Shown here: positions 7,019-50,595 of the stretch, one piece after another
How positions within the stretch are numbered: the first letter of the stretch is position 1
Layout of the letters: each line of letters begins with the position of its first letter
NCBI GenBank assembly: GCA_041486045.1
Contig: JBGPKR010000003.1
Coordinates: forward strand, 4,295 to 68,294
Direction: 5' to 3'
From: Chitinophagaceae bacterium
GTDB lineage: Bacteria; Bacteroidota; Bacteroidia; Chitinophagales; Chitinophagaceae
DNA: 64,000 nt
The notes under the pieces: generated by a model
The model's database searches: none
What the model was told of the DNA's origin: nothing
The model's input: only the letters and a program-made list of their open reading frames with translations
Position numbers and translations under genes: made by a program

Positions 7019-7045
7019 TATTTTTTAGTTTTTTCTTTGGTGAAT

Positions 7046-7082
7046 AAGCCCCTGGTTTCAACCGGGGGCTTTAACTTTTTTG
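7046..7082 (+). terminator. Intrinsic terminator
   Basis: 11-bp stem aagcccctggt-ttca-accgggggctt followed by a T-rich tail. Confidence 0.75.
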
Positions 7083-7108
7083 GCAAACAGGTAGTGCGGC
7101 AAATGGTC

Positions 7109-9871: not shown

Positions 9872-11644
9872 TTAATTATCCCAGAATGGTTTTCCACTCT
9901 GCAGATTGGCGGCTTTTTGGCCGGGACAGTGCAAATTATTATCAAGCTCTGATTGAGGATAAAACAGGGTTCTTGGAACCGCAGTAACGGTATTAATGTT
10001 ATTAACAGGAATAGAAAGAACAGGAAAACCTGTTCTCCTCCAATCGTTCCAGGGTTCAACAGACACGCCAAACAACGCAATATATTTTTCTTCAATGACC
10101 TGTTGAATCTGTTGTGCAGTAGTGCCGCTTAATGTACCATAAGAAGCCAGGTAAGTAGCTATATCAACTGCGGCCACACCAGCCTCCTGCATGGAAGCAG
10201 TGATACCGGCAGTAAAGAATGCCTGGGCGCTGCCGGGCGCACCTCTCAAAGCAGCTTCGGCACGGATAAAATTATATTCGGCAAAAGTGATCATGCGCTG
10301 GGCAGCAGCTCCTGTATAAGTAAACGGTTGTACGTAGGGTAGTGTTGGGCTTGCATATCCCGCCGGTGTGGCGGCACCTCCAACAGTAGCACCACGAAGA
10401 AATGTATGAATACGGCTGTAATTACTGTTGGCAGCAAGGGGGGGCTTTACAGCAGATACACCTCTGTACGCAGGTGAAAATGTGATTGAATTGCCTGAAG
10501 GAATAGAGGCAAAACTATATCCAGCAGTTTCATCATCATTAACAGTTATACTTGAGTCTGCGTTAATGGCTTTAACTATAGTAAATACGGGTATACCTGG
10601 TCCGCTTACAGTCATACCTGCACGAATTCCAAAAATAATAGGAGTAGCAAAAGGAATTCTGATACCTCCGGCTATAGCAGAGGTTGCGCCATTTGTTGTT
10701 TGGCTAAAAGAGGTAAAAGGAAACGGGAAAATGGCAAAATAAAATGGCCTTCTCGGATCTGATTTTGTATTCATCCTTTCTGTCATATTCCGGTCAGAAA
10801 ATAAATAATTGGGCCTGCTGACTTCAAACTGGGAAATGGGGTTACGTTGGTTGGCCACATCAAAAAAAGGAGTGGAGAAATTATCAGCATTGGAAGCTAA
10901 AAATGTAATACCGGCAGTGTTTACCAGCGTTGTTATTTGCGCTACACAAAAAGCAGGGTCTATTTTGCTGTAATGCAATAATAAGCGCAGCTTTAGTGTA
11001 TTGGCCAGCTTTATCCATTGGGGTTTTGCGGCGGCAAAACTTCCGCCATTAGTATAGATCATTGAATTGGTGCCTGGTGAAAGAAAACTGGCTGGCTGGT
11101 TCAGGTCAGCTATCCCGTCTGTCAGCAATTGGATAAGCTTAGGGTAAATAGTGGCATCATCATCATAATGCGGCTGTGAATTGGCAGTTAATAGTTGTGC
11201 TTCAGAATAAGGCACTTTGCCCCATACATCCACTACTAATGAATACTCGTAAGCTTTCATGATCTTGGCAACACCTGTATAATAAGGGCTGGCTGCTCCC
11301 TGGTTGATGATTAACTGCAGGTCGCTTAATGTTGTGGCATTAATACTTGACCATACATTGTTCTGGTCGGTCGGGGAAATATTATACCTGTAATATTCGA
11401 AGGTCTGGTTGGGCGATGAAGCTTCCCCCGACATCATCTGCATAATAACAGTCGCGTACCTGAACAGGTCACTGCCCCCTTCAAAGCTCAGGTTCACCTG
11501 TGTTGAAGTAAGCAACTGGGCTAACGGGCTGTTGGAGTCAGGAAGGGCTTCCGGATTCTTATTTACATCCAGAAATTTTTTACAGGAGCTTATGCCGATT
11601 ATCCCTGCAAAGAAAATGATCAATTTAAAATATCTGAGTTTCAT
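9872..11644 (-). CDS. SusD/RagB-family outer-membrane lipoprotein with ~80-aa internal insertion
   Basis: Lipobox ISSC; DVWGKVPYSEA, SDPRRPFYF, FAEYNFIRAEA, WNDWRRTGFP, PRTLFYP; directly downstream of susC. Confidence 0.93.
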   Translation of the reverse strand: MKLRYFKLIIFFAGIIGISSCKKFLDVNKNPEALPDSNSPLAQLLTSTQVNLSFEGGSDLFRYATVIMQMMSGEASSPNQTFEYYRYNISPTDQNNVWSSINATTLSDLQLIINQGAASPYYTGVAKIMKAYEYSLVVDVWGKVPYSEAQLLTANSQPHYDDDATIYPKLIQLLTDGIADLNQPASFLSPGTNSMIYTNGGSFAAAKPQWIKLANTLKLRLLLHYSKIDPAFCVAQITTLVNTAGITFLASNADNFSTPFFDVANQRNPISQFEVSRPNYLFSDRNMTERMNTKSDPRRPFYFAIFPFPFTSFSQTTNGATSAIAGGIRIPFATPIIFGIRAGMTVSGPGIPVFTIVKAINADSSITVNDDETAGYSFASIPSGNSITFSPAYRGVSAVKPPLAANSNYSRIHTFLRGATVGGAATPAGYASPTLPYVQPFTYTGAAAQRMITFAEYNFIRAEAALRGAPGSAQAFFTAGITASMQEAGVAAVDIATYLASYGTLSGTTAQQIQQVIEEKYIALFGVSVEPWNDWRRTGFPVLSIPVNNINTVTAVPRTLFYPQSELDNNLHCPGQKAANLQSGKPFWDN

Positions 11645-11662
11645 AATTACTTTTTTTATTAA

Positions 11663-14600
11663 TTAAAAGCTGAGGTTTAATCCTACTCCAATAGAACGTG
11701 TTTGTGGTAAAGCGTTAAACTCTATGCCCCCTGCATTGCTGATACCCTGAACATTTTGTTCCGGGTCCAGGTGCGGATAGAACGGAGCATTCAGGTAAAG
11801 GTTGCGCCCAAACACATTCAATGAAGCGCTGCTAAAAGGTGTTCTTTTCAGGAAATCTGAAGGCAATGTATATGAAACAGATGCTTCCCTTATCCGGAAC
11901 CAACTGGTTTTAAACATAAAGCCTTCTGCAGCGGCATATTTTCCGGCATTGCCAAAATATTGCTCCGCTGAAAGATAAGTGGTGTTTGGCTGGCCATTGG
12001 CATATACTGCATCAAAAATATAGGGCTTCTGCAATACACCGGCAGCATCATACCTCGGGTATTTGGCTGTTTCAATCGCTGCACCATTCCGCTGCAGGTC
12101 GGCTACGTTCCGGCTGTACAGATCACCGCCTTCCTTAATCTCCATCAGGAAAGACATAGTAATTGCTTTAAAGGTCATGGTATTAGTAATGCCCATTGTA
12201 TATTTAGGGTTCTGATTTCCAATCTTCACATTACCCGTGGTAACAAGTGGAAGACCATTGGCGCCAACAACTATCTTATTGCCTTTGTTGGGGTCTCTTA
12301 CATAAGCGTTGCCATATAACTCTCCGTATTCCTGACCAACAACCAACCGGGTATTAGGAGTTACAAATGAACTAATAGAGATATTGGTAAGGCCTTCTGC
12401 CAGTGAATTCACGACAGCTTTAAACTGAGTATAAGCAAGGTAAATGTTCCAGTTAAAGGATTTTGTTTTGAATGGTGTAACGCCAACACCAAGCTCCACT
12501 CCATTGTTGGTAAGGTCGCCGGCATTTTTTACCTGAGAGGTTATACCTGTAGTGGCGGAAACGCCTGCTGCAAAAATTAGTTTTTTTGATTGTTGTTTGT
12601 AGCGGGTAGCCTCAATGGTCAGGCGGCCTTTAAAAAATGACAGCTCAGCGGCGATCTCTCTATTCTTGGTAAACTCAGGTCCAAGGGCGGGGTTACCTGC
12701 AGAATTACCCAACGAATAACCCACCTGGCTATTAAAGGGGTAAGCAATAGAAGGTCCGAAGCCATCAGCAGAACTGGCAACAAAAAAGTAAGAGTCGGTG
12801 GCATATACAAAATCGCCTGCCTTACCTACGGATGCAAAATTACCCCTGATCTTAATTGATTCAATGATTTTACTTTTCAGCTTGGGAAATAGTTCAGTGA
12901 TATTAACGGAGCCTCCCGCACCATAGTACAAGTAAGAGTTTTTATTAACCTTGAAAGTGGAGGCCCAGTCATTTCTGAGGGTACCACTCAAAGTGAAAAT
13001 GCTTTTATAACTTACATCAAGGTTGCCATACAAACCTAAGAACCTTGTTTTTGAAGAATTGTTTTGAGGGGCAGGGCTGAACGTGGTTGTATTGCTTAAT
13101 TGTTCAAAATCCCGAACAATAACTCCTTTACCATCCAGTTGTGATGCATTGCTATAGATCTGCTGGAATTCTGTGCCTCCTATAAACGTCCCGCTCCAGC
13201 TTTTGATCCTCTTGCTGGCCGTGATAAATGCATTGGAGTTCAGGCTGCGGTAATTGCTTCTTGTTTCCCGAACAGCACCTGCTCCATTTGCAGTGGTATT
13301 TCCCTGTCCGCGGTCCCCGATCTGGTCATAAGCGTGCTGAAAAACAGAATAAACATCAGCACCTACTTTATAATCCGCCTGTAACCATTTAGTGAGTTTG
13401 AAATTAAAGGAAACATTTCCAATGAACCGGTTGATCTCATCACGGTAACGGGTATTCTTTATGGCCCAATATGGATTATCAGCAGCGGCAATTGTAGCAG
13501 GATTTAAATATCGTTGATTGCCTGTTGCAGGATCTTCCCATTGCAGACCACTTAGGTTATAACTTCTTGGTATGAACCATCCACGGAATAATGGGTTGCT
13601 CAACTGGTTTCCCTGTTGTGTTCTCCTGGAAGCATTATTGGAATAATTCCCGCTTGCAGTAACAGTCAGGTAGTTATTGACTTTTGAACTTGTATTTAAT
13701 GATAAATTATGACGGATCAATTCATTATTTTCCAACACTCCTTTGTTTTTCAGGTAGCCATAAGAAAAACGAAAAGTGTTTTTATCGGATCCACCTGAAA
13801 AAGCAATATTGTTTTGCCAATTCATTCCCTGGCGGAAAATATCCTTCACATTGTTAGGGTAAGCCTGCAGAACCTCAGTTCTATCATTTATGTTTGTTAG
13901 GGGATTATAGGCAGTTGTAACAGTTTGTCCCGTGATGCGTGGCCCCCATGATGATTCTGTGGAGGCGGAAAAAACTCCACCAGTTCCCTGGGCATACTCA
14001 TTTTGGAAAGACGGCATGCGGTCCACACTTTCAAGCTGGTAAGTGGTGGAATATTGAATCGCATTTTTTTGACCGGCTTTACCCTTTTTCATTGTAATTA
14101 GTATAACTCCGTTTGCTGCCCTTGATCCATATAATACAGCAGCAGAAGCGCCTTTCAGTACACTGATGCTTTCAATATCATCCTGGTTCAGGTCAATAGC
14201 CCTGTTGGAACGGGGCACACCATTTTGAACTGCAAAACCACCACCGCTGTTATCAATGGGAATGCCATCCACCACAAACAAGGGCTGGTTGGAACCAGTG
14301 AAAGTAGTATAGCCGCGGATAAGGATGCTGGAGCCGGTAAAAGAACCTCCACTACCACTAATCCTTACACCGGGTATTTTTGACGCCAGGGCATTGGTAA
14401 TATTGGTAGTGTGGGCCTGCGTCAGTTCGGTAGCGCTGAGTTGACTTACACCATAACCCAATGTCTTTCTATCTTTTTTAATACCAAATGCAGTCACCAC
14501 TACCTCCGACATTGTTTTGTCCTCATTTTTCAATGTCGCATCAACAACTGCTGATGTTCCAATTGCCATTTCAACAGGACTCATGTCAACTGCTGAAAAA

Positions 14601-14809
14601 ACAAGTGCTTTAGCATTTGCCGGAACAGTAAGGGAGTATGTCCCGTCTGCTTTTGTAATTGTACCGGTAGTTGTTCCTCTTACCATTACCGATACATTCT
14701 GAAGAGGAGTGCCTTTATCATTGGTAACCTTACCGCTGATTGTGCGTTGTGCAATTGCCTGGGCGGCGAAAAACACAACTCCCCAAAGGAGTAAAAACAA
14801 TTTTCTCAT
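11663..14809 (-). CDS. SusC/RagA-family TonB-dependent receptor
   Basis: EVVVTAFGIKK, PLFVVDGIPI, DIESISVLKGASAAVLYGSRAANGVILIT, C-terminal SF; start taken as ATG-AGA-AAA at 14809 (alternative ATG at 14815). Confidence 0.96.
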   Translation of the reverse strand: MRKLFLLLWGVVFFAAQAIAQRTISGKVTNDKGTPLQNVSVMVRGTTTGTITKADGTYSLTVPANAKALVFSAVDMSPVEMAIGTSAVVDATLKNEDKTMSEVVVTAFGIKKDRKTLGYGVSQLSATELTQAHTTNITNALASKIPGVRISGSGGSFTGSSILIRGYTTFTGSNQPLFVVDGIPIDNSGGGFAVQNGVPRSNRAIDLNQDDIESISVLKGASAAVLYGSRAANGVILITMKKGKAGQKNAIQYSTTYQLESVDRMPSFQNEYAQGTGGVFSASTESSWGPRITGQTVTTAYNPLTNINDRTEVLQAYPNNVKDIFRQGMNWQNNIAFSGGSDKNTFRFSYGYLKNKGVLENNELIRHNLSLNTSSKVNNYLTVTASGNYSNNASRRTQQGNQLSNPLFRGWFIPRSYNLSGLQWEDPATGNQRYLNPATIAAADNPYWAIKNTRYRDEINRFIGNVSFNFKLTKWLQADYKVGADVYSVFQHAYDQIGDRGQGNTTANGAGAVRETRSNYRSLNSNAFITASKRIKSWSGTFIGGTEFQQIYSNASQLDGKGVIVRDFEQLSNTTTFSPAPQNNSSKTRFLGLYGNLDVSYKSIFTLSGTLRNDWASTFKVNKNSYLYYGAGGSVNITELFPKLKSKIIESIKIRGNFASVGKAGDFVYATDSYFFVASSADGFGPSIAYPFNSQVGYSLGNSAGNPALGPEFTKNREIAAELSFFKGRLTIEATRYKQQSKKLIFAAGVSATTGITSQVKNAGDLTNNGVELGVGVTPFKTKSFNWNIYLAYTQFKAVVNSLAEGLTNISISSFVTPNTRLVVGQEYGELYGNAYVRDPNKGNKIVVGANGLPLVTTGNVKIGNQNPKYTMGITNTMTFKAITMSFLMEIKEGGDLYSRNVADLQRNGAAIETAKYPRYDAAGVLQKPYIFDAVYANGQPNTTYLSAEQYFGNAGKYAAAEGFMFKTSWFRIREASVSYTLPSDFLKRTPFSSASLNVFGRNLYLNAPFYPHLDPEQNVQGISNAGGIEFNALPQTRSIGVGLNLSF

Positions 14810-14840
14810 GAGCATTTAGTTTTAGTATATAATTGAAATC

Positions 14841-14880
14841 AAGTCCCTCCTGATCCTCTCGAAGAGACCAAAGGGGGCTT
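14841..14880. promoter_or_regulatory. GC-rich hairpin just upstream of susC (terminator or leader structure)
   Basis: aagtccctcc...agggggctt outer stem enclosing ctctcgaagag; function unknown. Confidence 0.35.
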
Positions 14881-15060
14881 GAAATTAAAGAACCTTATAC
14901 AAAAAAGTCAAAAAAACATTCAGTTTTTGAAAAACAGCCTGTTAATTGAAATTTTAGCCTTTTCCTTCCTTAATATCGGACAATTTCCCGGAACGGTTTG
15001 CTGCTTTAAAAACTAGCAGCCTGCCACCTGTTTAATATACTGTAAAAGTAATGAAATCAG

Positions 15061-22754: not shown

Positions 22755-23819
22755 ATGCTGGATCGTTTAGAAGCCATAAAAGCAAGATTTGACCAGTTGG
22801 GAGTGGCCCTTACCAACCCTGCCGTTGTAGGCAACAATAAAAAATTTGCTGAAACCAGCAAGGAATACCGGAGTCTTGAGAAAATTGTAATTGCGTATAA
22901 TGATTATAAGAAGCTGCTGGATGATATCAGTTTTTACAAAGAAGCGCTGAACGGTGATGATGAAGAAATGAGGGAACTGGCCAAAATGGAAGCGCCTGCA
23001 TTGGAAGAAAGGAAAACCCAAATGGAGGCATATATCAGGCAGTTGCTGATACCGAAAGATCCGCAGGATGAAAAGAATGCTATTCTTGAAATCCGGGCAG
23101 GTACAGGGGGTGATGAAGCCAGTTTATTTGCCGGTGATTTGCTGAGAATGTATATGAAATATTGTGAAAAAAGAGGATGGAAAACTGCATTGCTGAGCGA
23201 GAATGAAGGAAGTGTTGGTGGCTATAAGGAAGTGCAATTAGAGGTTACAGGCGAGGATGTGTACGGCACTTTAAAATTTGAAAGCGGTGTGCACAGGGTA
23301 CAGCGGGTCCCGGACACGGAGGCATCGGGAAGGGTGCATACATCTGCGGCCACCGTTGCGGTGATGCCGGAAGCAGAAGAGGTGGATTTTGAATTAAATC
23401 CTGCGGATGTAAAAATGGAAACAGCCCGGAGTGGCGGCGCCGGTGGTCAGAATGTAAATAAAGTGGAAACCAAAGTATTGCTGACACATATACCTACCGG
23501 AACCGTGGTCGTTTGCCAAACCGAAAGGTCACAATTGGGCAACCGGGAAAAAGCCATGCAGATGCTTCGCACCAGGCTATATGAAGAACAGGTAAGGAAA
23601 CAGGAGGAAGAAATTTCCCGTCACCGGAAAAGCCTGGTAAGTACCGGCGACCGCAGCGCCAAAATAAGAACGTATAATTTTCCACAGGGAAGGGTTACGG
23701 ATCACCGCATTGGTCTTACACTTTACAACCTGGATGACATATTGAATGGGAATATCCAGGAATTGATCGAATCCTTACAATTTGCTGAAAATTCTGAAAA
23801 GCTTGCCAAGCAGAATTAA
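22755..23819 (+). CDS. prfA: Peptide chain release factor 1
   Basis: [26 protein letters not shown] (PxT), [11 protein letters not shown] (GGQ), [15 protein letters not shown]. Confidence 0.97.
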
Positions 23820-23880
23820 GACAGGAGTTTAGCCTGAAAAAATAGCCTTAATCCCTCTTTTTGGCATGATTTTTTAAAGG

Positions 23881-23951
23881 TGTTATATGAACCTGTTTTC
23901 TACTATAAATAGAAAAGTTCTTTGTCAGATACATGTCAGGTTTATATAACA
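23881..23951 (+). other. Long intergenic RNA hairpin of unknown function
   Basis: 15-bp stem tgttatatgaacctg/caggtttatataaca enclosing a second hairpin ttttcta-ctataaa-tagaaaa. Confidence 0.5.
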
Positions 23952-24111
23952 GACACGTAAGGAAAGTAAGATTTGGGTATGGAATACTCTGAATTATAGC
24001 ATCGTAGAGTTACAAAACAGCTACTGAGCTTTTACGAAGAGAAGATTAAGTGGAATTACTAAAGTTGAGCTTTTAAACTTTCATTAACAGCAAACATCAT
24101 ACTTCCGGCAG

Positions 24112-24119
24112 TAAATTTG
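24112..24119 (+). promoter_or_regulatory. -7 promoter element (TAAATTTG) with no downstream ORF
   Basis: TAnnTTTG match; no clear -33 TTTG seen. Confidence 0.6.
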
Positions 24120-24124
24120 CGTTA

Positions 24125-24227
24125 TACTTACAGAAAAATAATTTGAACTCATTATAAAGACAGTCAATTTTCTCATAAGCAGTTAGTTTTGGTTGCGACC
24201 CCTGTTTCTACAGGGGTCTATTTTTTT
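24125..24227 (+). ncRNA. Candidate trans-acting small RNA antisense to susC-type translation-initiation regions (5' end approximate)
   Basis: Promoter at 24112, terminator at 24197-24227, no ATG on + strand; 24165-24191 matches 14798-14824 at 24/27 nt, so it is complementary to susC mRNA across the AUG. Confidence 0.65.
24197..24227 (+). terminator. Intrinsic terminator
   Basis: 9-bp stem gacccctgt-ttct-acaggggtc then tattttttt; U-tract on + strand only. Confidence 0.85.
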
Positions 24228-24601
24228 ATATACCTCTTAGTACTAAAATAAACACCCAGGGCACAACCCAGCGCATCGGCAATAATATCCCCCACATCAA
24301 AAGAGCGGTTTTTAATTAAGTATTTCTGAACGAACTCCATTCCGATGCCATAAGCAAGGCCCATGAGGCCAACCCATATAAACAAGGTTCTTAACCTTGT
24401 GTCAACAGTATATTTTTTCAGTATTGCCCAACAGAACAATGTTACCATGATGGCAAACATGCCGATATGCACCCATTTGTCTAACCAGATTTTATCCAGC
24501 CAGTCTTCTTTTGGAAATGATGAACCCGGTAATGTCAATAATATTGTTGAAATGATAAACCAGGCAATGGCGGGAGTAAAAGAAGGTTTTATTGTTTTCA
24601 A
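24218..24601 (-). CDS. VanZ-family membrane protein
   Basis: DKWVHIGMF, GIGMEFVQ, RSFDVGDIIADALG. Confidence 0.92.
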   Translation of the reverse strand: MKTIKPSFTPAIAWFIISTILLTLPGSSFPKEDWLDKIWLDKWVHIGMFAIMVTLFCWAILKKYTVDTRLRTLFIWVGLMGLAYGIGMEFVQKYLIKNRSFDVGDIIADALGCALGVYFSTKRYIKK

Positions 24602-25395: not shown

Positions 25396-27855
25396 ATGAG
25401 AAAATTATTTGTATTTATTGCGGTTTTTGGCCTTTCTTTTTCAACTATCCAGGCTCAAAAAATTTCAGGGATGGTGAAAGATGAATTGGGAAAAGGCATG
25501 GAAAAAACAACGATCTCCCTGCTGCGGGCAAGGGATTCTTCAGTCGTAAAACTTGCCGTGTCAGGCTCTGACGGGCGGTTTAGTTTTCAGTCTTCTTCCG
25601 GTAAATTCCTGGTTAGTGTGTCACATGTTGGCTACATGCCCCGGTATTCGGCGAGTTTTGAAGTGTCGGGGGATGTAGAGATTCCGGTTATTCAAATGAC
25701 AAAAGCTGCCACTAATCTCCAGGGCGTTAGCGTAAGTTCCGTAAAGCCAATGGTAGAAGTAAAGGCTGACAAAACCATTCTGAATGTGGAAGGAACTATC
25801 AATTCTGTGGGTAGTGATGCGTTGGAGTTGCTTCGCAAATCTCCAGGGGTAACGATTGATAAGGATGACAACGTGAGCCTGTCCGGAAAGAATGGTGTTC
25901 AGATTTATATTGATGGCAAACCAACGCCTCTATCTGGTGCAGATCTGACTGCTTTTCTTAAAAACCTTCAATCATCCCAGATAGAAGCTATTGAGATCAT
26001 TACAAACCCTTCTGCAAAATATGATGCTGCGGGCAATGCAGGTATCATTAATATCAAATTGAAAAAAAATAAGGCTTTTGGTACCAATGGTTCCGTAAAT
26101 GCCGGGTATGCAATCGGGATCTATCCAAAATATAACGGGGGGATCTCTCTTAATAACAGGGGTAAAAAAGTCAATGTATTCGGAAACTTTAATTACAATA
26201 GGGGGACCAGTGCTAATATATTCAAACTGCACAGAGAACAGTTGGACACAGTTTTCGACCAGGTGAATAATGTGACCATGCATAACGAAAGCCAGGGATT
26301 TAAGGCGGGTCTTGATTATTATGCAGATAAGAAAAACACATTCGGAATTCTTATCAATGGAAATTTTGCTGATAACGAATTTAAGACCAATGGGAAAACA
26401 CCGATTGTTTATAAACCTACCGGAATAACTGACAGAGTACTCACGGCCAACAATAGCACTCAGGCAGAAAGAAATAATATGAATTTCAACCTGAACTATC
26501 ATTTTGCTGATACAGCAGGACATGATTTGACCGTGGATGCAGACTATGGCCTGTACAGAACCAAGACAGACCAGATGCAACCCAATATTTATTACAATGC
26601 TGCCATGACAACGGAATTAAGCCGGACAATCTATAATTTCATTTCACCAACTGATATTGATATTTATACCCTGAAATCAGATTATGAACAAAACTTAAAA
26701 GGCGGCAAACTTGGACTTGGATTTAAAACATCTGTTGTCAACACGGGTAATAATTTTGGCCGATATAATGTATTTGGCAATACAAAAACACTTGACGTAA
26801 CAAGAAGTAACCAGTTTGATTACAAGGAAAATATCAATGCCTTTTACCTGAATTATAACAAGGCATTTCCGAAGAAGGGCTTTATGATACAGGCCGGCCT
26901 GCGGGTGGAGAATACCAATAACAGGGGGGATTCATACGGGTTAAATAGTGACGGATCTGTAAATACTGCAAGCAAGCAATCAATCAAACGTAACTACACA
27001 GGACTGTTCCCAAGTGGTTCTCTTACTTTCAACAAGAATCCCATGAAACAGTGGAGCTTTTCATATAGCCGCAGGATAGACCGTCCGGCTTACCAGGACC
27101 TGAACCCGTTTGAATTTAAACTGGATGAGTATACTTTCCAGAAAGGAAATACGAACCTGAGACCGCAATACACGAATAGTATTTCGGTGACCAATATTTA
27201 CAAATACAAGCTGACATCAACACTGAATTACAGCCATGTGGCAGATGTGTTTACACAGTTAGTTGATACTGCTGAAAAATCAAAAGCTTTTATCACTAAA
27301 AAGAATCTGGCCACCCAGAATATTGTCAGCCTGAATATAAGTTACCCGTTCATGTATAAGAATTACAGCATGTTTGCCAACCTGAATACCTATTACTCGA
27401 TGTATAAGGCTGATTTTGGCGGTGGGAACAGGGTGATAAACCTGAATGTATTTTCTTATAATATTTACATGCAGCACAGCCTGAAGCTTGATAAGAAGAA
27501 AACCTGGACGGCTGAATTAAGTGGTTTTTACAACGCACCAACTGTATGGCAGGGAACATTTAAGAGTAATGCTATATGGGCTATTGATGGTGGTTTTCAG
27601 AAAACAATTCTCAAAGGAAAAGGAAACCTGAAAGCATCGGTGAGTGATATATTCAAAACACTCCATTGGACAGGTACCAGCAATTTTGCAGGACAAAGCC
27701 TCACGGCCAGTGGTAACTTTGAAAGCAGGCAGTTTAAATTGAATTTTACCTACCGTTTTGGAAACAGCCAGGTAAAAGCTGCGAGGAACAGGAAATCTGC
27801 CTCTGAAGAAGAAAGCAAACGCACGCAAGGTGGTGGCCAGGGGATAGGACAATAA
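25396..27855 (+). CDS. TonB-dependent receptor-like outer-membrane beta-barrel protein
   Basis: Signal peptide, CarboxypepD_reg-like N-terminus, plug (IEAIEIITNPSAKYDAAGNAGIINI), barrel ending LNFTYRFG; starts ATGAGAAAATTA. Confidence 0.9.
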   Translation: MRKLFVFIAVFGLSFSTIQAQKISGMVKDELGKGMEKTTISLLRARDSSVVKLAVSGSDGRFSFQSSSGKFLVSVSHVGYMPRYSASFEVSGDVEIPVIQMTKAATNLQGVSVSSVKPMVEVKADKTILNVEGTINSVGSDALELLRKSPGVTIDKDDNVSLSGKNGVQIYIDGKPTPLSGADLTAFLKNLQSSQIEAIEIITNPSAKYDAAGNAGIINIKLKKNKAFGTNGSVNAGYAIGIYPKYNGGISLNNRGKKVNVFGNFNYNRGTSANIFKLHREQLDTVFDQVNNVTMHNESQGFKAGLDYYADKKNTFGILINGNFADNEFKTNGKTPIVYKPTGITDRVLTANNSTQAERNNMNFNLNYHFADTAGHDLTVDADYGLYRTKTDQMQPNIYYNAAMTTELSRTIYNFISPTDIDIYTLKSDYEQNLKGGKLGLGFKTSVVNTGNNFGRYNVFGNTKTLDVTRSNQFDYKENINAFYLNYNKAFPKKGFMIQAGLRVENTNNRGDSYGLNSDGSVNTASKQSIKRNYTGLFPSGSLTFNKNPMKQWSFSYSRRIDRPAYQDLNPFEFKLDEYTFQKGNTNLRPQYTNSISVTNIYKYKLTSTLNYSHVADVFTQLVDTAEKSKAFITKKNLATQNIVSLNISYPFMYKNYSMFANLNTYYSMYKADFGGGNRVINLNVFSYNIYMQHSLKLDKKKTWTAELSGFYNAPTVWQGTFKSNAIWAIDGGFQKTILKGKGNLKASVSDIFKTLHWTGTSNFAGQSLTASGNFESRQFKLNFTYRFGNSQVKAARNRKSASEEESKRTQGGGQGIGQ

Positions 27856-31168: not shown

Positions 31169-31300
31169 AATGCTGCATTGCTGTTTTTATTTTTGAAAGT
31201 GTTTGTATAATTATTCGTTAAAGGAATTCTGGTCATCGCTTTTCTTCCATTTGCATTTCATATTTGCTGGAATGTTTTGATAATCACTAAAACCAGCAGC

Positions 31301-31969
31301 ATGAGAAAACATACAATCATAATTGTTATCACTACTTTGATTTTTGCCAAAAATACAGAGGGACAAATAAGGAAAGGATCAGTTTTTCTCGGCGGTGATT
31401 TGGCTTTTTCATCAGAAAAAGGAACCAGCAGCAATAATAACAACTATAAAACGGGGGGCTTCCATTTTTTACCGGTTTTCGGAAAGGCTGTAAAAGAAAA
31501 CCTCATTGCCGGCTCTGATTTACTTTATTATTACCAGAACAATGATGTTTCATTGGATTTCAATGACAATAAACAATGGATCTATGGTGCAGGATTTTTT
31601 ATCAGGCAATATCAACAAATAGCACAAACCAGGTTTTCCCTTTTTTTACAGGGTCATTTGGGTGCTGAGGTTGACAAAATAAAACAGGCATTTAATACAC
31701 CGGATAAAATAGAAATAAGAACATTTTCCTTAATCTTAAGCATCTATCCCGGAATATCCTACTACATCAGTAGAAAGTTGCAGATCGAAACGGGGTTCAA
31801 TAACCTGGTTGGTGCAAGATATTTTCACCGAGAAACTGTTTCAGGAACAATAAACCCGGTTACAAGTTCAGCAAATGGATTTAATTTGTATGCAAGTCTT
31901 GAAAACCTGACCAGGTTCTACGTTGGTTTCAGGCTTCTTATCAATAAAAAAGGGGATAGGGGTAAATAA
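31301..31969 (+). CDS. Outer-membrane beta-barrel protein
   Basis: Signal peptide MRKHT...TEGQ, QIRKGSVFLGG, amphipathic strands; starts ATGAGAAAA. Confidence 0.75.
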   Translation: MRKHTIIIVITTLIFAKNTEGQIRKGSVFLGGDLAFSSEKGTSSNNNNYKTGGFHFLPVFGKAVKENLIAGSDLLYYYQNNDVSLDFNDNKQWIYGAGFFIRQYQQIAQTRFSLFLQGHLGAEVDKIKQAFNTPDKIEIRTFSLILSIYPGISYYISRKLQIETGFNNLVGARYFHRETVSGTINPVTSSANGFNLYASLENLTRFYVGFRLLINKKGDRGK

Positions 31970-45449: not shown

Positions 45450-46934
45450 TTATTTTACTTCTTGCATTAGTTTTCTTACCAATGGCGAAATGATTAAGAG
45501 TACCACCCCGGCAATCAATGCATAAATAGCTAATTGTTTATAGCCAGAAGTATATAAGAGTAACTTTTCAGTCAACGGTGCATTTTGATCAGGCGATGCC
45601 ATCCCGGCCCCCAATATCCCGGCCACATATTGTCCATAGGCGCTGGCCAAAAACCACATCCCCATCATCATACCCTGTAAAGGTTTAGGCGAAAGTTTAG
45701 TCATGATGGAAAGCCCGATTGGGGATAAGCATAATTCGCCGAATGTGATAACGAGATAGGCAAGCGTAAATACATCTAATGAAGTTATCCCCTGCGCATT
45801 TGCAAAGAAAATCGTTGCATAAAAAATATAGAAAGCCAGGCTGAGAAACAGAAATCCCATTCCGAATTTTACAACGGTGTTGGGCTCTTTCTTTCTTTTA
45901 TTTAACCAGATCCAGATGATGCCGATAATAGGTGCAAAAATGATTACAAAAAGCGAATTGGCTGAATTGTTTACTCCGTTTGGATCGAGCGGAATAAAAC
46001 CCAGCAGTTTATGATTAAGATTATTGGCTGCAAACAAACTCAGTGAGCCTCCGCTTTGTTCAAAAAAAGCCCAGAATAAAATAGAGAAAATGATAAACAC
46101 AAGGGCAGCTACCAGTTTTTTTCTTTCTACTGCAGAAAATTTCGTCATCTCATAAAGCAAATAAAGTAAGGCAGCCGGGCCAATGATGTACATAAACCAG
46201 TCGGTATATTCGGTTTTGGTAACCATTTTCATAATAACGGGGATAATAAGCAGGGAACCGAGGTAAACCGCATACTCATACCATTTCCTTTTTTTATTAT
46301 CATTGTTTAACGGTGAAAGCCCGATCGGCCCCATTTTTTTTTGTGTAAAAATGAATGTGAGCAAACTGATGGTCATTACAATGGCTGCTAAACCAAAGGC
46401 AAGATTCCAGGAGTAATTCTTGCCAATGGCTATACAGGCATATCCTCCCAGCAAGGCCCCGATATTAATACCTGAATAGAATAATGAAAATCCTGCATCT
46501 CTTCTGCCGTCTCCGGTTTTATACAGGCTGCCCACCATAGTGGAAATATTGGGTTTGAAAAAACCGGTACCAATGATATTAAAACTGATACCCAGGAAGA
46601 AAAATTCTTTGGGGTCAATGGACAGGATCAGGCTGCCGGTTATCATGAGCAGGCCGCCCCAGAACAATGATTTTCTGAAACCAAGAATTTTATCAGCAAA
46701 CAATCCGCCAATGAAAGTAAAGGCATATACAAAAGCCTGCGTTGCACCATATTGTAAATTTGCCACATCATCCTTCATCATCAATTGATTCACCATGAAA
46801 AATGTCAGCATCCCTCTCATTCCATAAAATGAGAACCGCTCCCACATTTCAGAGAAGAACAGGGACCAGAGTTGTTTTGGATATTTTCCCTGAAAGGATT
46901 GTATTTCTTCCAGTGTTGCCTGTTCGTTTGCCAT
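45450..46934 (-). CDS. POT/PTR-family peptide:H+ symporter (copy 3 in transcription order)
   Basis: EMWERFSFYG, GGLFADKILG, GTGFFKPN, GELCLSPIGLS. Confidence 0.95.
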   Translation of the reverse strand: MANEQATLEEIQSFQGKYPKQLWSLFFSEMWERFSFYGMRGMLTFFMVNQLMMKDDVANLQYGATQAFVYAFTFIGGLFADKILGFRKSLFWGGLLMITGSLILSIDPKEFFFLGISFNIIGTGFFKPNISTMVGSLYKTGDGRRDAGFSLFYSGINIGALLGGYACIAIGKNYSWNLAFGLAAIVMTISLLTFIFTQKKMGPIGLSPLNNDNKKRKWYEYAVYLGSLLIIPVIMKMVTKTEYTDWFMYIIGPAALLYLLYEMTKFSAVERKKLVAALVFIIFSILFWAFFEQSGGSLSLFAANNLNHKLLGFIPLDPNGVNNSANSLFVIIFAPIIGIIWIWLNKRKKEPNTVVKFGMGFLFLSLAFYIFYATIFFANAQGITSLDVFTLAYLVITFGELCLSPIGLSIMTKLSPKPLQGMMMGMWFLASAYGQYVAGILGAGMASPDQNAPLTEKLLLYTSGYKQLAIYALIAGVVLLIISPLVRKLMQEVK

Positions 46935-46965
46935 ACAAGTATTTTAGATTTGAAAGATATATAAA

Positions 46966-46995
46966 AAAAGCTGACGGATAATACCGCCAGCTTTT
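46966..46995 (-). terminator. Intrinsic terminator
   Basis: - strand aaaagctggcgg-tattat-ccgtcagctttt followed by U-tract. Confidence 0.75.
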
Positions 46996-47011
46996 CAGCA
47001 ATTTTAATAAA

Positions 47012-48724
47012 CTATTTCACTCCTTTTTCCTTCATGACCCGGTTAAGCCATCGCAACAGTAAGAAAAGAGCAATCGCCGGTACTATAACAATAAAAAAAT
47101 TGGTTAAAAAGAATTTTGATTTATCGGCATATCCTTCCCACATGCCGGATAAGATACCTGAAAGTTTATTACCGATACTAACTGATAAAAACCATCCACC
47201 CATCATTAAGGAAGTGAGCCTGGGTGGGCTCAATTTTGAAACCAGCGACAAACCCATCGGGGAAAGGCAAAGTTCACCAATAGTGATCACACCATAACTG
47301 GCCAGGAGCCATAAAGCAGAAGCTTTATCAGCAGATGTATTTATTGATTTTACAGCTGCTACCATTACTAACGCCGATAAAGCTGTAATGAAAAGACCGA
47401 TAGCAATTTTGGACGGCGTGGAAGGTTCTTTTCCCTTTCTTCGCAGGAAGCCAAATATTCCTACAACAATGGGTGTAAGTACAATTACCCAAAATGGATT
47501 GATAGATTGAAACAATTCAGTGGATGCCAGTTTCAGGTCTTTCCCGGCAGCGGGTCTTTTTGATCCGGGAAGATTGGTGAAATATTTACGGGATTTGTCC
47601 CGGATCGTAATTGTTTTACCCAATTCTTTTGCAGCCACTTTGTTCCCGGCTTTTTCTAAAGAATCCTGTTGAACTTTTAATCCGCCCAGGTAGCTCTTCA
47701 TCTGTGCATCATCATATGATACAGATTCATGATAGTTAACCGTTTGAGCCAGGCCAACCGTATTAGCCGCTTTAGCTACTGCCGGTGATAATTTCCGGTC
47801 TGTATTATTTTCAGCCCAAACAGTGAGCGCATCGCCATTCTGGTGAAAAATGGCCCAGAAAACAACAACACATCCCATAACGGTAAGCAAGGCTGCCAAT
47901 GGTCTTTTATCCGTTACGCTGGCCCTGTACCATAGTGAGATATAATAAAAAACAACAGGCAAACTGCCAATAAGGAAAGCATCATTGCCATCTGAACCGA
48001 AAATATTGCCGGGTATTATCCAGCCTAATATGCCAAATATAAAAACAGGGATAAAGACTGTTGCTAAAACTTTATATAGCGGTAAATCTTCTTTTGTTGT
48101 GGGTTTGATAATGTCAACGTCTTTTACATGTTTCATGCCTCTTAAAAACCAAAGCAAGCCGATCAACATACCCACCCCTGCTGCTGCAAATGCATAACCC
48201 CACCCGTAATTGATCCGCATATAGGCCGCAACAAAATTGCAGATAAAGGCCCCGACATTGATACCCATATAAAAGATATTGTACCCAGCATCTTTTTTGC
48301 TGGCATACTTAGGATTGTTATAAAGATTACCGACAAGCGTAGAAATATTAGGTTTGAAAAAACCATTGCCAACAATGATAAGTAGCAGCGAAACATAAAA
48401 AGCTGTTTCACCGTGTATGGCCATACCTAAATAACCGGCAGCCATTAAAATAGCGCCAATGATAATGCTCCGGCGATAGCCTAATATCCGGTCGGCCAGT
48501 AAACCCCCAATAAAGGGCGTTAAGTAAACAAGGCCAAGATAGGTACCATAGATATCCGACTTTTTACTGGCGGAGAACCCCATGCCACCATTTTGAGTGC
48601 TATCGAACATGTACAGGGAGAAAATACCCAACATCAGGTAATAACCAAACCGTTCCCACATTTCAGTAAAGAATAAAATATAGAGTCCTCTTGGATGTGA
48701 GGTGGATTGATTAAGATTTTCCAT
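47012..48724 (-). CDS. POT/PTR-family peptide:H+ symporter (copy 2)
   Basis: EMWERFGYY, GNGFFKPN, ELFQSINP, GELCLSPMGLS. Confidence 0.95.
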   Translation of the reverse strand: MENLNQSTSHPRGLYILFFTEMWERFGYYLMLGIFSLYMFDSTQNGGMGFSASKKSDIYGTYLGLVYLTPFIGGLLADRILGYRRSIIIGAILMAAGYLGMAIHGETAFYVSLLLIIVGNGFFKPNISTLVGNLYNNPKYASKKDAGYNIFYMGINVGAFICNFVAAYMRINYGWGYAFAAAGVGMLIGLLWFLRGMKHVKDVDIIKPTTKEDLPLYKVLATVFIPVFIFGILGWIIPGNIFGSDGNDAFLIGSLPVVFYYISLWYRASVTDKRPLAALLTVMGCVVVFWAIFHQNGDALTVWAENNTDRKLSPAVAKAANTVGLAQTVNYHESVSYDDAQMKSYLGGLKVQQDSLEKAGNKVAAKELGKTITIRDKSRKYFTNLPGSKRPAAGKDLKLASTELFQSINPFWVIVLTPIVVGIFGFLRRKGKEPSTPSKIAIGLFITALSALVMVAAVKSINTSADKASALWLLASYGVITIGELCLSPMGLSLVSKLSPPRLTSLMMGGWFLSVSIGNKLSGILSGMWEGYADKSKFFLTNFFIVIVPAIALFLLLRWLNRVMKEKGVK

Positions 48725-48756
48725 TGTTCTGCTTTTAGTGGAAGATGAAAATAAAT

Positions 48757-48787
48757 AAAAAAGGTGACTATTCCAGCCACCTTTTTT
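48757..48787 (-). terminator. Intrinsic terminator
   Basis: - strand ggtggct-ggaat-agtcacc then tttttt. Confidence 0.7.
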
Positions 48788-48807
48788 TGGACAAAGGATG
48801 AATAAGG

Positions 48808-50595
48808 TTAATCAAACCCTGTTTTGTCTTTTACGATTTTATTCAATGATTTTATCCTTGAATAAATAAGGATACCACCAATAAAGGCAGCCACAACAAG
48901 GATAAGGAAAAACATTTTCTTATCAGTAAAATCATCCCAGAAACTCGTCATTACTCCCGCTACTTTACCACCGATAGACGTTGACAAGAACCATCCTCCC
49001 ATCATCAGCGCTGTTAGACGGGGTGGTGCTAATTTAGAAACTAATGATAATCCCATCGGGCTGAGGAATATTTCGCTGACTGTAAATACAAAATAGGTAC
49101 CCCATAACCATACCTGGGAAGCTTTATTTGTGTAAATGGAAGGCACAGACATAATAGCGAATACCATTACCAAAGCTGATAGACCTGAAATGAATAATGC
49201 CATTCCAAACTTGGACATGGTAGTTGGTTCTTTTCCTCTTCGTCGCAGGAAACTGAAGAAAGGAACAAAGAAAAGTGTCAGTAGTACAATAAATAAGGGG
49301 TTGATAGATTGAAACAATTCAGTATTCGTCAGTTTTAGATTTTTACCACCCGGCCATTGATCTTTTGGCACATTATTAAAATAGGGGTCAGGTCCCATCA
49401 CTAATACAGTTTTTGAAGAGGGGTCTACCTTATTTCCTGCAGCGGTTATTCCAAATACCCGTTGGGTTGTATCAGATTTATTGCCCTCCTTTGTTATTGT
49501 TACTACACTATCCTTCGCAATGATGGCGCTTGTATCTTTCACATCCACAAAATATTCATTCACTTTATTCACAAGCCGGGGGGTATCATTTACTTCCTGT
49601 AGGGGATATATTTTCCCTGTAATTTTTGCCGTTAAAGGCGAGGCAACTCTGTCGGTATGTTTTTCTGCCCATAGGGTAAGTCCCGTTGAATTTTGATTGT
49701 AGATCGTCCAGAAAGCAACAGCAATAACAAAAATGAATAACAAGGCACCTATTCCTTTTTTGTCCTGCCCCTTAGCTCTTATCCACAATGAAATGTAAAA
49801 AGCAATGATTGGTAAACAGGCAAAAATAAAAGCGTCATTGGCTTTGGTTCCCATAATAGAGGTGCCAAAAACTTTCGTGGGCAAAAACCAACCAATTACT
49901 GCTGCTATTATAGCAGGCAGGAATACAGTTGCCAAAATTTTGGAAAGAGACATATCCTCAGCCTGTACCGGTTTTCTTACATCTGCTTCCTTTATTTCCT
50001 TATTTTTTAATGCGGTACTGAGGAGAATCAAACCTATAATAAGACCAACGCCTGCTGCTGCAAAGGCGTAGCCCCATCCATATTTATTTCTCAGGTAAGC
50101 GGCAACAAAATTGCAAAAAAAGGCGCCAATATTGATGCCCATATAAAAAATATTATAAGCATTATCCTTTAATGGTTTGAGGTCTTCCCGGTTATAAATA
50201 TTTCCAAGTAAAGTGCTGATATTAGGTTTAAAAAAACCGTTGCCAACTATGATCATGCCAAGCGCCACAAACATGGCCGTATCGCCCGGAATAGATAAAC
50301 ACAGGTAACCGGCCGCCATTAATGAACCACCAATAAAGATGGATTTAATATAGCCCAGGTACCTGTCGGCAATCAAACCGCCGATAAATGGCGTCAGGTA
50401 AACAAGGGCAATGAAACTGCCAACTATATCAGCCCCGATCTTTCCGGAAAAGCCTTTCCCACCGGTAGTGGTATCAGTCATGTATAATAATAAAATACCT
50501 ACCATTAAATAGTAAGCAAAGCGTTCCCACATCTCCGTGAAGAACAATACATATAACGCTTTCGGGTGTTTGCCGGTTTTTGCAGGTTGATTCAT
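48808..50595 (-). CDS. POT/PTR-family peptide:H+ symporter (copy 1) with long extracytoplasmic loop
   Basis: EMWERFAYY, GNGFFKPN, ELFQSINP, SEIFLSPMGLS. Confidence 0.95.
   Translation of the reverse strand: MNQPAKTGKHPKALYVLFFTEMWERFAYYLMVGILLLYMTDTTTGGKGFSGKIGADIVGSFIALVYLTPFIGGLIADRYLGYIKSIFIGGSLMAAGYLCLSIPGDTAMFVALGMIIVGNGFFKPNISTLLGNIYNREDLKPLKDNAYNIFYMGINIGAFFCNFVAAYLRNKYGWGYAFAAAGVGLIIGLILLSTALKNKEIKEADVRKPVQAEDMSLSKILATVFLPAIIAAVIGWFLPTKVFGTSIMGTKANDAFIFACLPIIAFYISLWIRAKGQDKKGIGALLFIFVIAVAFWTIYNQNSTGLTLWAEKHTDRVASPLTAKITGKIYPLQEVNDTPRLVNKVNEYFVDVKDTSAIIAKDSVVTITKEGNKSDTTQRVFGITAAGNKVDPSSKTVLVMGPDPYFNNVPKDQWPGGKNLKLTNTELFQSINPLFIVLLTLFFVPFFSFLRRRGKEPTTMSKFGMALFISGLSALVMVFAIMSVPSIYTNKASQVWLWGTYFVFTVSEIFLSPMGLSLVSKLAPPRLTALMMGGWFLSTSIGGKVAGVMTSFWDDFTDKKMFFLILVVAAFIGGILIYSRIKSLNKIVKDKTGFD

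Follow-up and report, generated by a model that had tools for sequence, protein, structure and literature searches.

The window, by which we mean the whole analysed stretch of 64,000 nucleotides (contig JBGPKR010000003.1 of GenBank assembly GCA_041486045.1, from a Chitinophagaceae bacterium), contains a 400-nt gap between the release factor gene prfA and a convergent VanZ-like gene, and in this gap sits a short + strand element that is predicted to encode a small RNA (Table 1). The stop codon of the VanZ-like gene (TAG, 24220-24218) shares the last base of the element's hairpin; past that gene lie one for GcvH and then one for an 819-aa TonB-dependent-receptor-like protein. A susC/susD pair, the putative target, is encoded on the opposite strand, 9.3 kb from the element, with unrelated genes between the two; in other genomes the two lie on different contigs. 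The remaining genes of the window, including the neighbours of the susC/susD pair, are housekeeping genes, and three genes for peptide transporters of the POT/PTR2 family stand in tandem on the - strand at 45450-50595.

Table 1. Features of the window that bear on the predicted sRNA and its putative target
Feature	Position	Strand	Remarks
SusD-like lipoprotein	9872-11644	-	Pfam SusD-like_2; follows susC
SusC-type TonB-dependent transporter	11663-14815	-	Pfam CarboxypepD_reg, Plug, TonB_dep_Rec barrel
Target operon susC + susD	9872..14815	-	stand-alone pair; no glycoside hydrolase genes nearby
Predicted sRNA binding site on susC mRNA	14798..14826	-	-17 to +12 relative to ATG 14809; includes in-frame ATG 14815
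prfA (RF-1)	22755-23819	+	upstream neighbour of the sRNA element
Promoter block cTTTAAACTTTCATTAACAGC...ATACTAnnGGCAGTAAATTTGCGTTATA	24070..24125	+	conserved; TTAACA at 24084-24089
Sigma-54-like -24/-12 element GGCAG-TAAAT-TTGC	24107..24120	+	GG 24107-8, GC 24119-20; encloses TAAATTTG
Predicted sRNA	24132..24227	+	about 92-104 nt; no ATG; family covariance model
Variable A/U-rich 5' part	24148..24168	+	degenerate second seed copy CTCATTATAAAGACAGTCAAT; in relatives TTCTCACATAAAGCAGTCAAT; from alignments
Invariant seed TTTCTCATAAGCAGTTAGTTTTGGT	24169..24193	+	25 nt; includes CAU, complementary to the start codon
Intrinsic terminator	24197..24227	+	9-bp stem, loop TTCT, U tract 24219-24227
VanZ-like gene	24218-24601	-	convergent to the sRNA element

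The first-pass annotation had described the element as a -7 box followed by a transcript with no ATG and by a terminator, and these pieces lie where it placed them: TAAATTTG at 24112-24119, a + strand free of ATG from 24120 to 24227, and a stem of GACCCCTGT and ACAGGGGTC (24197-24205 and 24210-24218; nine pairs, six of them G-C) that closes a TTCT loop and is followed by the tail TATTTTTTT. This stem is the sole terminator-like site on the + strand between 23000 and 25600. The 3' end of the RNA is placed in the U tract, and the 5' end would lie near 24132 with a sigma-54 promoter or near 24124 with a sigma-A promoter. Searches of the window against Rfam, at the gathering score and at E <= 10, gave no relevant family (at E <= 10 there was snoRNA noise only), and a literature search found no description of the seed sequence or of any Chitinophagaceae sRNA. 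In the closest relative (L001, 4089-4757), prfA and the sRNA are separated by a 222-aa Gly/Asn-rich ORF that the window lacks; 23820-24070 holds only non-coding remnants there.

The evidence for a gene comes from comparison among relatives. Eighty prfA loci were fetched from related genomes, all Chitinophagaceae, with prfA proteins 75-94% identical; the element lies downstream of prfA in 60 of them, TTTCTCATAAGCAGTTAGTTTTGGT is identical in 60/60, and its flanks can barely be aligned among these relatives. A scan for the core through one genome per species (185,579 species) returned at least 120 loci, and among the matches listed the seed is invariant in 117 of 120, the remaining three showing a one-base difference, while the order of core, hairpin and T tract is kept in all 120. 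Upwards of 140 distinct loci from several Chitinophagaceae genera share this 25-nt core unchanged. Carriers include the cultured Terrimonas ferruginea DSM 30193, Puia dinghuensis CGMCC 1.15448, Flavisolibacter ginsengisoli DSM 18119, Sediminibacterium salmoneum NBRC 103935 and Niabella drilacis DSM 25811, and the complete chromosomes OZ252003.1 (Flavisolibacter) and OY730416.1 (Ferruginibacter). By column, 22 of the 25 seed positions are identical in 120/120 aligned distinct units and the other three are at least 90% identical. The hairpin, by comparison across 120 distinct sequences, covaries: 97% of cells are paired, double compensatory changes occur in eight of the nine pairs (135 cells), none of 500 shuffles reaches the observed pairing values, and slid registers drop to 22-57% paired. 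Since the T tract lies on the + strand side only, the transcribed strand is +, and coding on that strand is excluded by stops in two frames within the core and by indels of 1-4 nt ahead of the hairpin. RNAalifold places a possible weak stem inside the seed, where the columns are invariant and so give no covariation signal.

Searched with a covariance model of the family, the window yields exactly one copy (95.3 bits, E 2e-20); the second-best match is to the susC start, in antisense and without the hairpin (32.6 bits). The third match, at 7020-7087, was rejected as a second copy: it is the terminator after a PDZ gene and lacks the seed, and it scores 24.6 bits because its stem and loop (7043-7087, GCCCCTGGTTTCAACCGGGGGC) are much like those of the sRNA terminator. 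As far as sequence can tell, 24132-24227 is an independent + strand sRNA gene, made of a conserved single-stranded seed and a structurally conserved intrinsic terminator, and it belongs to a family that is spread through the Chitinophagaceae and is apparently undescribed. The stand-alone RNA gene of the first-pass annotation is in this respect borne out by the alignments and the covarying terminator; the seed is kept in relatives, so that the sRNA reading survives on this point, and orthologues and paralogues widely keep seed, hairpin and T tract together, although not the TA of the promoter. In four relatives (L028, L039, L130 and L187), TTCTCACATAAAGCAGTCAAT directly precedes TTTCTCATAAGCAGTTAG as a degenerate tandem copy of the seed, almost exact in L130 and L187, and a copy of this kind may be a second seed module.

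Upstream of the transcribed part, 22 prfA-linked relatives could be aligned; TTAAC, GGCA and TTTG are invariant or nearly so, the sequence farther upstream cannot be aligned, and the conserved order is TTAACA, about 17 nt, and TGGCA-N6-TTTGC. The TAnnTTTG -7 box that had been proposed is present in the window and its closest relatives, but in more distant ones its TA is lost whereas TGGCA-N6-TTGC is kept, and both the sequence and the 12-bp GG-to-GC register of the latter match sigma-54 promoters (TGGCAC-N5-TTGC). Matches at eight or more of the nine positions occur in 85 of 143 distinct units (54 of them perfect), against 4/143 for the reverse complement and 0/143 for shuffles; a good motif of this type is absent from 58 of the 143, and some copies unlinked to prfA look sigma-A-like instead. 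The end of the motif lies 30-54 nt ahead of the seed. The window promoter, cGGCAG-TAAAT-TTGC, is an 8/9 match, and a motif match only; within the window alone the motif is not significantly enriched (4 found, 3.4 expected), so that support for sigma-54 comes only from conservation across the homologues. Going by this motif, we would lean towards sigma-54-dependent transcription of the sRNA. In Flavobacterium psychrophilum there is experimental support for promoters of this type, which drive genes for chaperones, envelope stress and gliding (PMC9723704), and a comparative study finds the same chaperone/protease theme of sigma-54 across Bacteroidota (PMC12316311). Farther upstream, at 24000-24070 of the window, a pair of TTAC(G/T)AA-like motifs with a spacing of about 20 nt (ttttacgaag ... 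gtggaattactaaag) is common to close relatives and may be an activator binding site.

The putative target of the seed is the start of susC. The match of 24165-24191 to the + strand at 14798-14824 was confirmed at 24 of 27 positions, with none of 100 shuffles as good, and the complementarity is slightly longer than had been claimed, at 26 of 29 identical positions (24165-24193 against 14798-14826). The predicted duplex with the susC mRNA has 26 Watson-Crick pairs, one G-U pair and two mismatches, 27 of the 29 positions being paired. Two in-frame ATGs, at 14809 and at 14815, where the ORF finder starts the protein (MLMRKL, a correction to the start given earlier), fall inside this duplex, and homologues keep both. 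In RNAduplex calculations the susC start, at -32.9 kcal/mol, is the best of 47 gene starts in the window, the next reaching -23.4, and tiles across the window average -14.5 (sd 3.8); in 1.46 Mb of related DNA it is the best complement, sRNA genes aside. One result counts against the pairing reading: part of the predicted target site is itself paired when the susC leader is folded.

Target-type SusC genes (window 14809-14815, L201-L280) have in-frame ATGs six bases apart, in the arrangement ATG-CNC-ATG-AGA-AAA; the upstream A of ATG-CNC-ATG is a conserved mismatch with the sRNA and creates the upstream in-frame AUG of susC. On the - strand of the susC leader (window 14830-14900), a long hairpin lies upstream of the conserved tTGATTTCaatTATATACTAAAAC leader, its sequence varying and its presence being kept in SusC homologues, and this hairpin may either terminate the MMPL gene upstream or be a structure of the leader itself. 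The susC leader region contains no recognisable TAnnTTTG promoter.

The complementarity extends to other SusC proteins of the family. We gathered 21 Chitinophagaceae SusC homologues (31-84% identity) by protein similarity alone, which leaves the sample unbiased with respect to the leader, and nearly all of them keep tatatACTAAAACTAAATGC[T/A]CATGAGAAAA, the leader farther upstream being variable. With the 25-nt seed, 17 of the 21 reach -20 kcal/mol or lower, while 55 other gene starts from the same loci average -8.9 kcal/mol and none of them reaches -20. The reverse approach, in which the 185,579 species genomes were scanned for AAAACTAANTGCNVATGAGAAA, chosen so as not to match the canonical sRNA, gave 63 loci, among them about 40 starts of SusC-like ORFs in Chitinophagaceae, about 12 seed variants of the sRNA, and about seven chance matches scattered over other phyla, which is in line with a pattern of 19 fixed bases. 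The roughly 40 target ORFs are about 1040 aa long and come from Terrimonas, Sediminibacterium, Flavihumibacter and others, and their signal peptides and upstream contexts are of six or more unrelated kinds; in a sample of ten, nine were SusC-type transporters and one was a type IX secretion cargo protein. The latter, with SprB repeat and CHU_C (L273 1539-3524, in the genome of L002), has a target-type leader, and on this evidence the predicted targets may not be limited to SusC. Several genomes have two target-type SusC genes, sometimes adjacent.

A search for the motif at gene starts, which the first-pass annotation had proposed as a check, hence finds matches almost only at SusC-like starts of Chitinophagaceae, and the broader regulon of MRK-start outer-membrane genes that it had drawn does not hold. 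Its two further candidates do carry ATGAGAAAA, at 25396 and 31301, but orthologues of gene 25396 share only ATGAGAAA with the target and pair with energies at background level; ATGAGAAAA itself occurs 8 times in the window against 1.4 expected. For gene 31301 there is no firm support as a target, although it stands as a weak bipartite candidate (-21.1 kcal/mol, rank 3), with ACUAAAAC and AUGAGAAAA separated by a 7-nt instead of a 9-nt spacer. The gene encodes a 222-aa secreted, beta-barrel-like protein and reads ACTAAAAC-N7-ATGAGAAAA at 31285-31309 of the window, its spacer being 2 nt shorter than that of the target motif. A multi-gene SusC regulon is plausible, and the predicted regulon would be refined to a SusC subfamily marked by the leader motif ACTAAAACTAAATGCNCATGAGAAA, rather than to MRK-start genes in general.

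Some genomes hold two or more copies of the sRNA, or seed variants. Paralogues with variant seeds occur as CATGAGCAG (L173, L182, L241, L278), CATTTGCAG (L230, L270) and CATTAGCAG (L098, L244, L265, L272), and also in L263, whose seed is the exact complement of AAAACTAAATGCACATGAGAAAA, the common SusC leader. The variation falls on the two bases 3' of CAU, which correspond to the positions (-1/-2) at which SusC leaders differ from one another, and in MAG_AAO_AS.8, the sole genome in which seed and target variants were compared, the variant seed repairs one mismatch. The variants suggest either that they co-evolve with SusC leaders or that sRNAs arise from susC 5' ends through inverted duplication. 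At the same time, the seed is invariant over 25 nt although pairing at the SusC sites is interrupted by two or three retained internal mismatches, and this length exceeds the apparent need of such imperfect pairing. Some further constraint may act, whether a large number of targets that differ in their mismatches, a protein that binds the RNA, or the weak internal stem. The susC complementarity could stem in part from an origin of the sRNA by inverted duplication, which would explain the similarity and not its maintenance.

This surplus of conservation leads to the question of whether the sRNA, if real, has another main partner. The seed might be kept for a protein (of RRM type, for example), for some other RNA, or as a sponge or decoy, the last by pairing with perfectly complementary read-through transcripts of the convergent vanZ gene. 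Invariance beyond what the imperfect SusC sites need, together with RNAalifold's possible weak stem, fits a reading of this kind; read-through is conceivable, as the hairpin shares sequence with the vanZ stop codon and is not followed by a U tract on the - strand, and among the matches listed a vanZ-like gene adjoins the sRNA in 63 of 120 loci, which leaves about half of the copies without such a neighbour. The complementary site is, however, kept specifically at the SusC starts of paralogues with unrelated flanks and is nearly absent elsewhere in the 185,579 genomes, and we regard a main partner other than the susC start as unlikely. Chance similarity, arising from shared A/T-rich initiation regions and the common Met-Arg-Lys start of signal peptides, is hardly credible at all: ATGAGAAA is indeed common at gene starts and is the only part that orthologues of gene 25396 share, yet the shuffles never gave the 24/27 match and the background gene starts never reached the -20 kcal/mol that 17 of the 21 SusC homologues reach.

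Other readings would do without a separate sRNA gene. The element could act in cis, as the terminator of a long prfA 3' UTR (possibly with a processed RNA derived from it) or as a bidirectional terminator shared with vanZ. Among the matches listed, prfA does adjoin 50 of the 120 copies, always on the same strand and 89-2814 nt upstream of the element, and in two relatives (L018 and L019) the seed begins only about 85 nt past the prfA stop and the promoter motif is degenerate; but of the loci with enough upstream sequence, 41 of 77 are unlinked to prfA (none within 2.5 kb), a conserved promoter block lies 30-54 nt upstream of the seed, and the closest relative has its 222-aa gene in between, all of which makes a cis element quite improbable. 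Very improbable, in our judgement, is a coding remnant or small protein on the - strand, where the locus reads like a susC start (a 5' UTR followed by ATGAGAAAATTG) and where a 30-aa ORF beginning MRKLTVF (24176-24084) exists, or a relic of a susC 5' end. We rejected the ORF as a gene: in 151 homologous units it is 3-55 aa long, with stops from codon 4 on, and nothing beyond MRK is conserved. Conservation ends at the ATG-proximal codons, and decay of a relic would not leave 25 nt invariant amid diverging flanks. The sRNA reading survives this alternative too, which the first-pass annotation had itself named.

We therefore prefer to read the element as an sRNA of about 95 nt that acts in trans by base pairing, is part of a Chitinophagaceae family and is predicted to occlude the susC start, and give this reading a probability of roughly 0.7. 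Of the original proposal that an sRNA masks the start of susC, the conservation of the gene, the covariation of its terminator and the conserved complementarity to SusC starts have stood, and the MRK regulon and the -7 box have fallen. A sigma-54-type promoter (-24 GG / -12 GC) would drive the sRNA, the 25-nt seed beside the terminator would pair with the initiation region of the susC mRNA, and the duplex would bury both susC AUGs and the A-rich region from -17 to -1. Bacteroidota mRNAs lack Shine-Dalgarno sequences, and initiation on them depends on an A-rich upstream region (PMC11697453, PMC7366714). A steric block of SusC translation initiation would be the most likely action, as was shown biochemically for FopS-10, and expression of the co-transcribed susD would probably drop too. 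We infer that the sRNA is expressed and, by analogy, that the direction of regulation is repression.

The closest analogy is found in Bacteroides thetaiotaomicron, and it shows that the premise of the first-pass annotation, by which only cis-encoded PUL antisense RNAs had been described, is outdated. The FopS family, with 14 paralogues, and GibS are trans-encoded and prevent the translation of susC homologues by base pairing with their initiation regions (Ruttiger et al. 2025, PMC11697453; Ryan et al. 2020, PMC7366714). For FopS-10 acting on the susC gene BT_3983, a block of initiation by pairing beside the start codon was shown biochemically, and FopS and GibS are bound and antagonised by the RRM protein RbpB (PMC11697453). 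These RNAs come from the same phylum as ours and share with it trans-encoding, a length of roughly 65-145 nt, an unstructured U-rich seed with CAU, several targets, and paralogous copies, one FopS member being derived from a 3' UTR; the pairing at susC starts is found here in silico, at 27 of 29 positions in the window and in 17 of 21 homologues. The 5' seed of FopS and GibS, GUGUUUUUCAUAGUAUUAG (R1/R1'), which we took from the T7 primers in the supplement, aligns on our seed UUUCUCAUAAGCAGUUAG in 14 of 18 columns with two gaps, centred on CAU. The resemblance is nevertheless not significant (341 of 2000 shuffles, 17%, score as well), and homology of the seeds does not follow from it.

There are also differences from FopS and GibS. 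Their seed stands at the 5' end, whereas here it lies about 19-42 nt from the predicted 5' end, beside the terminator; FopS has the canonical sigma-ABfr TAnnTTTG and GibS has PM2, and the promoter here probably differs in type, with TAAATTTG, whose TA is not kept in relatives, and a -24/-12-like motif; and they belong to Bacteroidaceae, with 14 copies, as against mostly one or two in Chitinophagaceae. By analogy, then, the sRNA would work like FopS, yet it is not assignable to the FopS family. The DonS-type cis-antisense sRNAs of Bacteroides resemble it in that PUL expression is repressed by an RNA, but they are encoded antisense inside their own PUL and not, as here, at a distance from susC.

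More distant parallels can be drawn. MicA, RybB and MicL of the enterobacteria belong to sigma-E, and the scheme is similar, in that a stress sigma factor drives an sRNA which stops the synthesis of abundant outer-membrane beta-barrels by acting at the initiation region, although there is no sequence or Rfam relationship and the sigma factor differs. These three depend on Hfq; Bacteroidota, to our knowledge, have none. In the Bacteroidota the parallel would lie in sigma-54, which drives a regulon of chaperone and envelope-stress genes (PMC9723704; PMC12316311). For the Chitinophagaceae sRNA we infer a link to stress from the promoter motif only. Qrr1-4 of Vibrio, GlmY/GlmZ and NrsZ likewise have a sigma-54-type -24/-12 promoter, while their sequence, phylum and targets are unrelated. 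The Qrr RNAs have a long, absolutely conserved single-stranded stretch that serves several mRNAs.

It is tempting to go further and speculate, with rather more doubt than conviction, that the RNA belongs to a sigma-54 proteostasis and envelope-stress regulon and shuts down the SusC set under stress, as the phylum's counterpart of sigma-E with MicA and RybB; that its CAU-centred seed is an ancient relative of the R1 seed of FopS and GibS, which would make anti-susC sRNAs a deeply conserved, phylum-wide tier of outer-membrane control; and that seed variants and the start regions of SusC paralogues evolve in step.

Work on RNA-based regulation in Bacteroidota has so far dealt almost exclusively with Bacteroides of the gut. 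If the reading proposed here is true, environmental Bacteroidota of soil, freshwater and activated sludge possess a family-wide sRNA that acts on a defined, conserved class of targets, which suggests that occlusion of the susC start by an sRNA is a general strategy of the phylum and not a peculiarity of Bacteroides. The 25-nt seed and the equally conserved SusC motif offer a clean system for compensatory mutations in a setting without Hfq and without Shine-Dalgarno initiation, and through the sigma-54-like promoter a link from stress signalling to the synthesis of outer-membrane transporters becomes open to test. The family could also enter Rfam and so serve the annotation of several hundred genomes.
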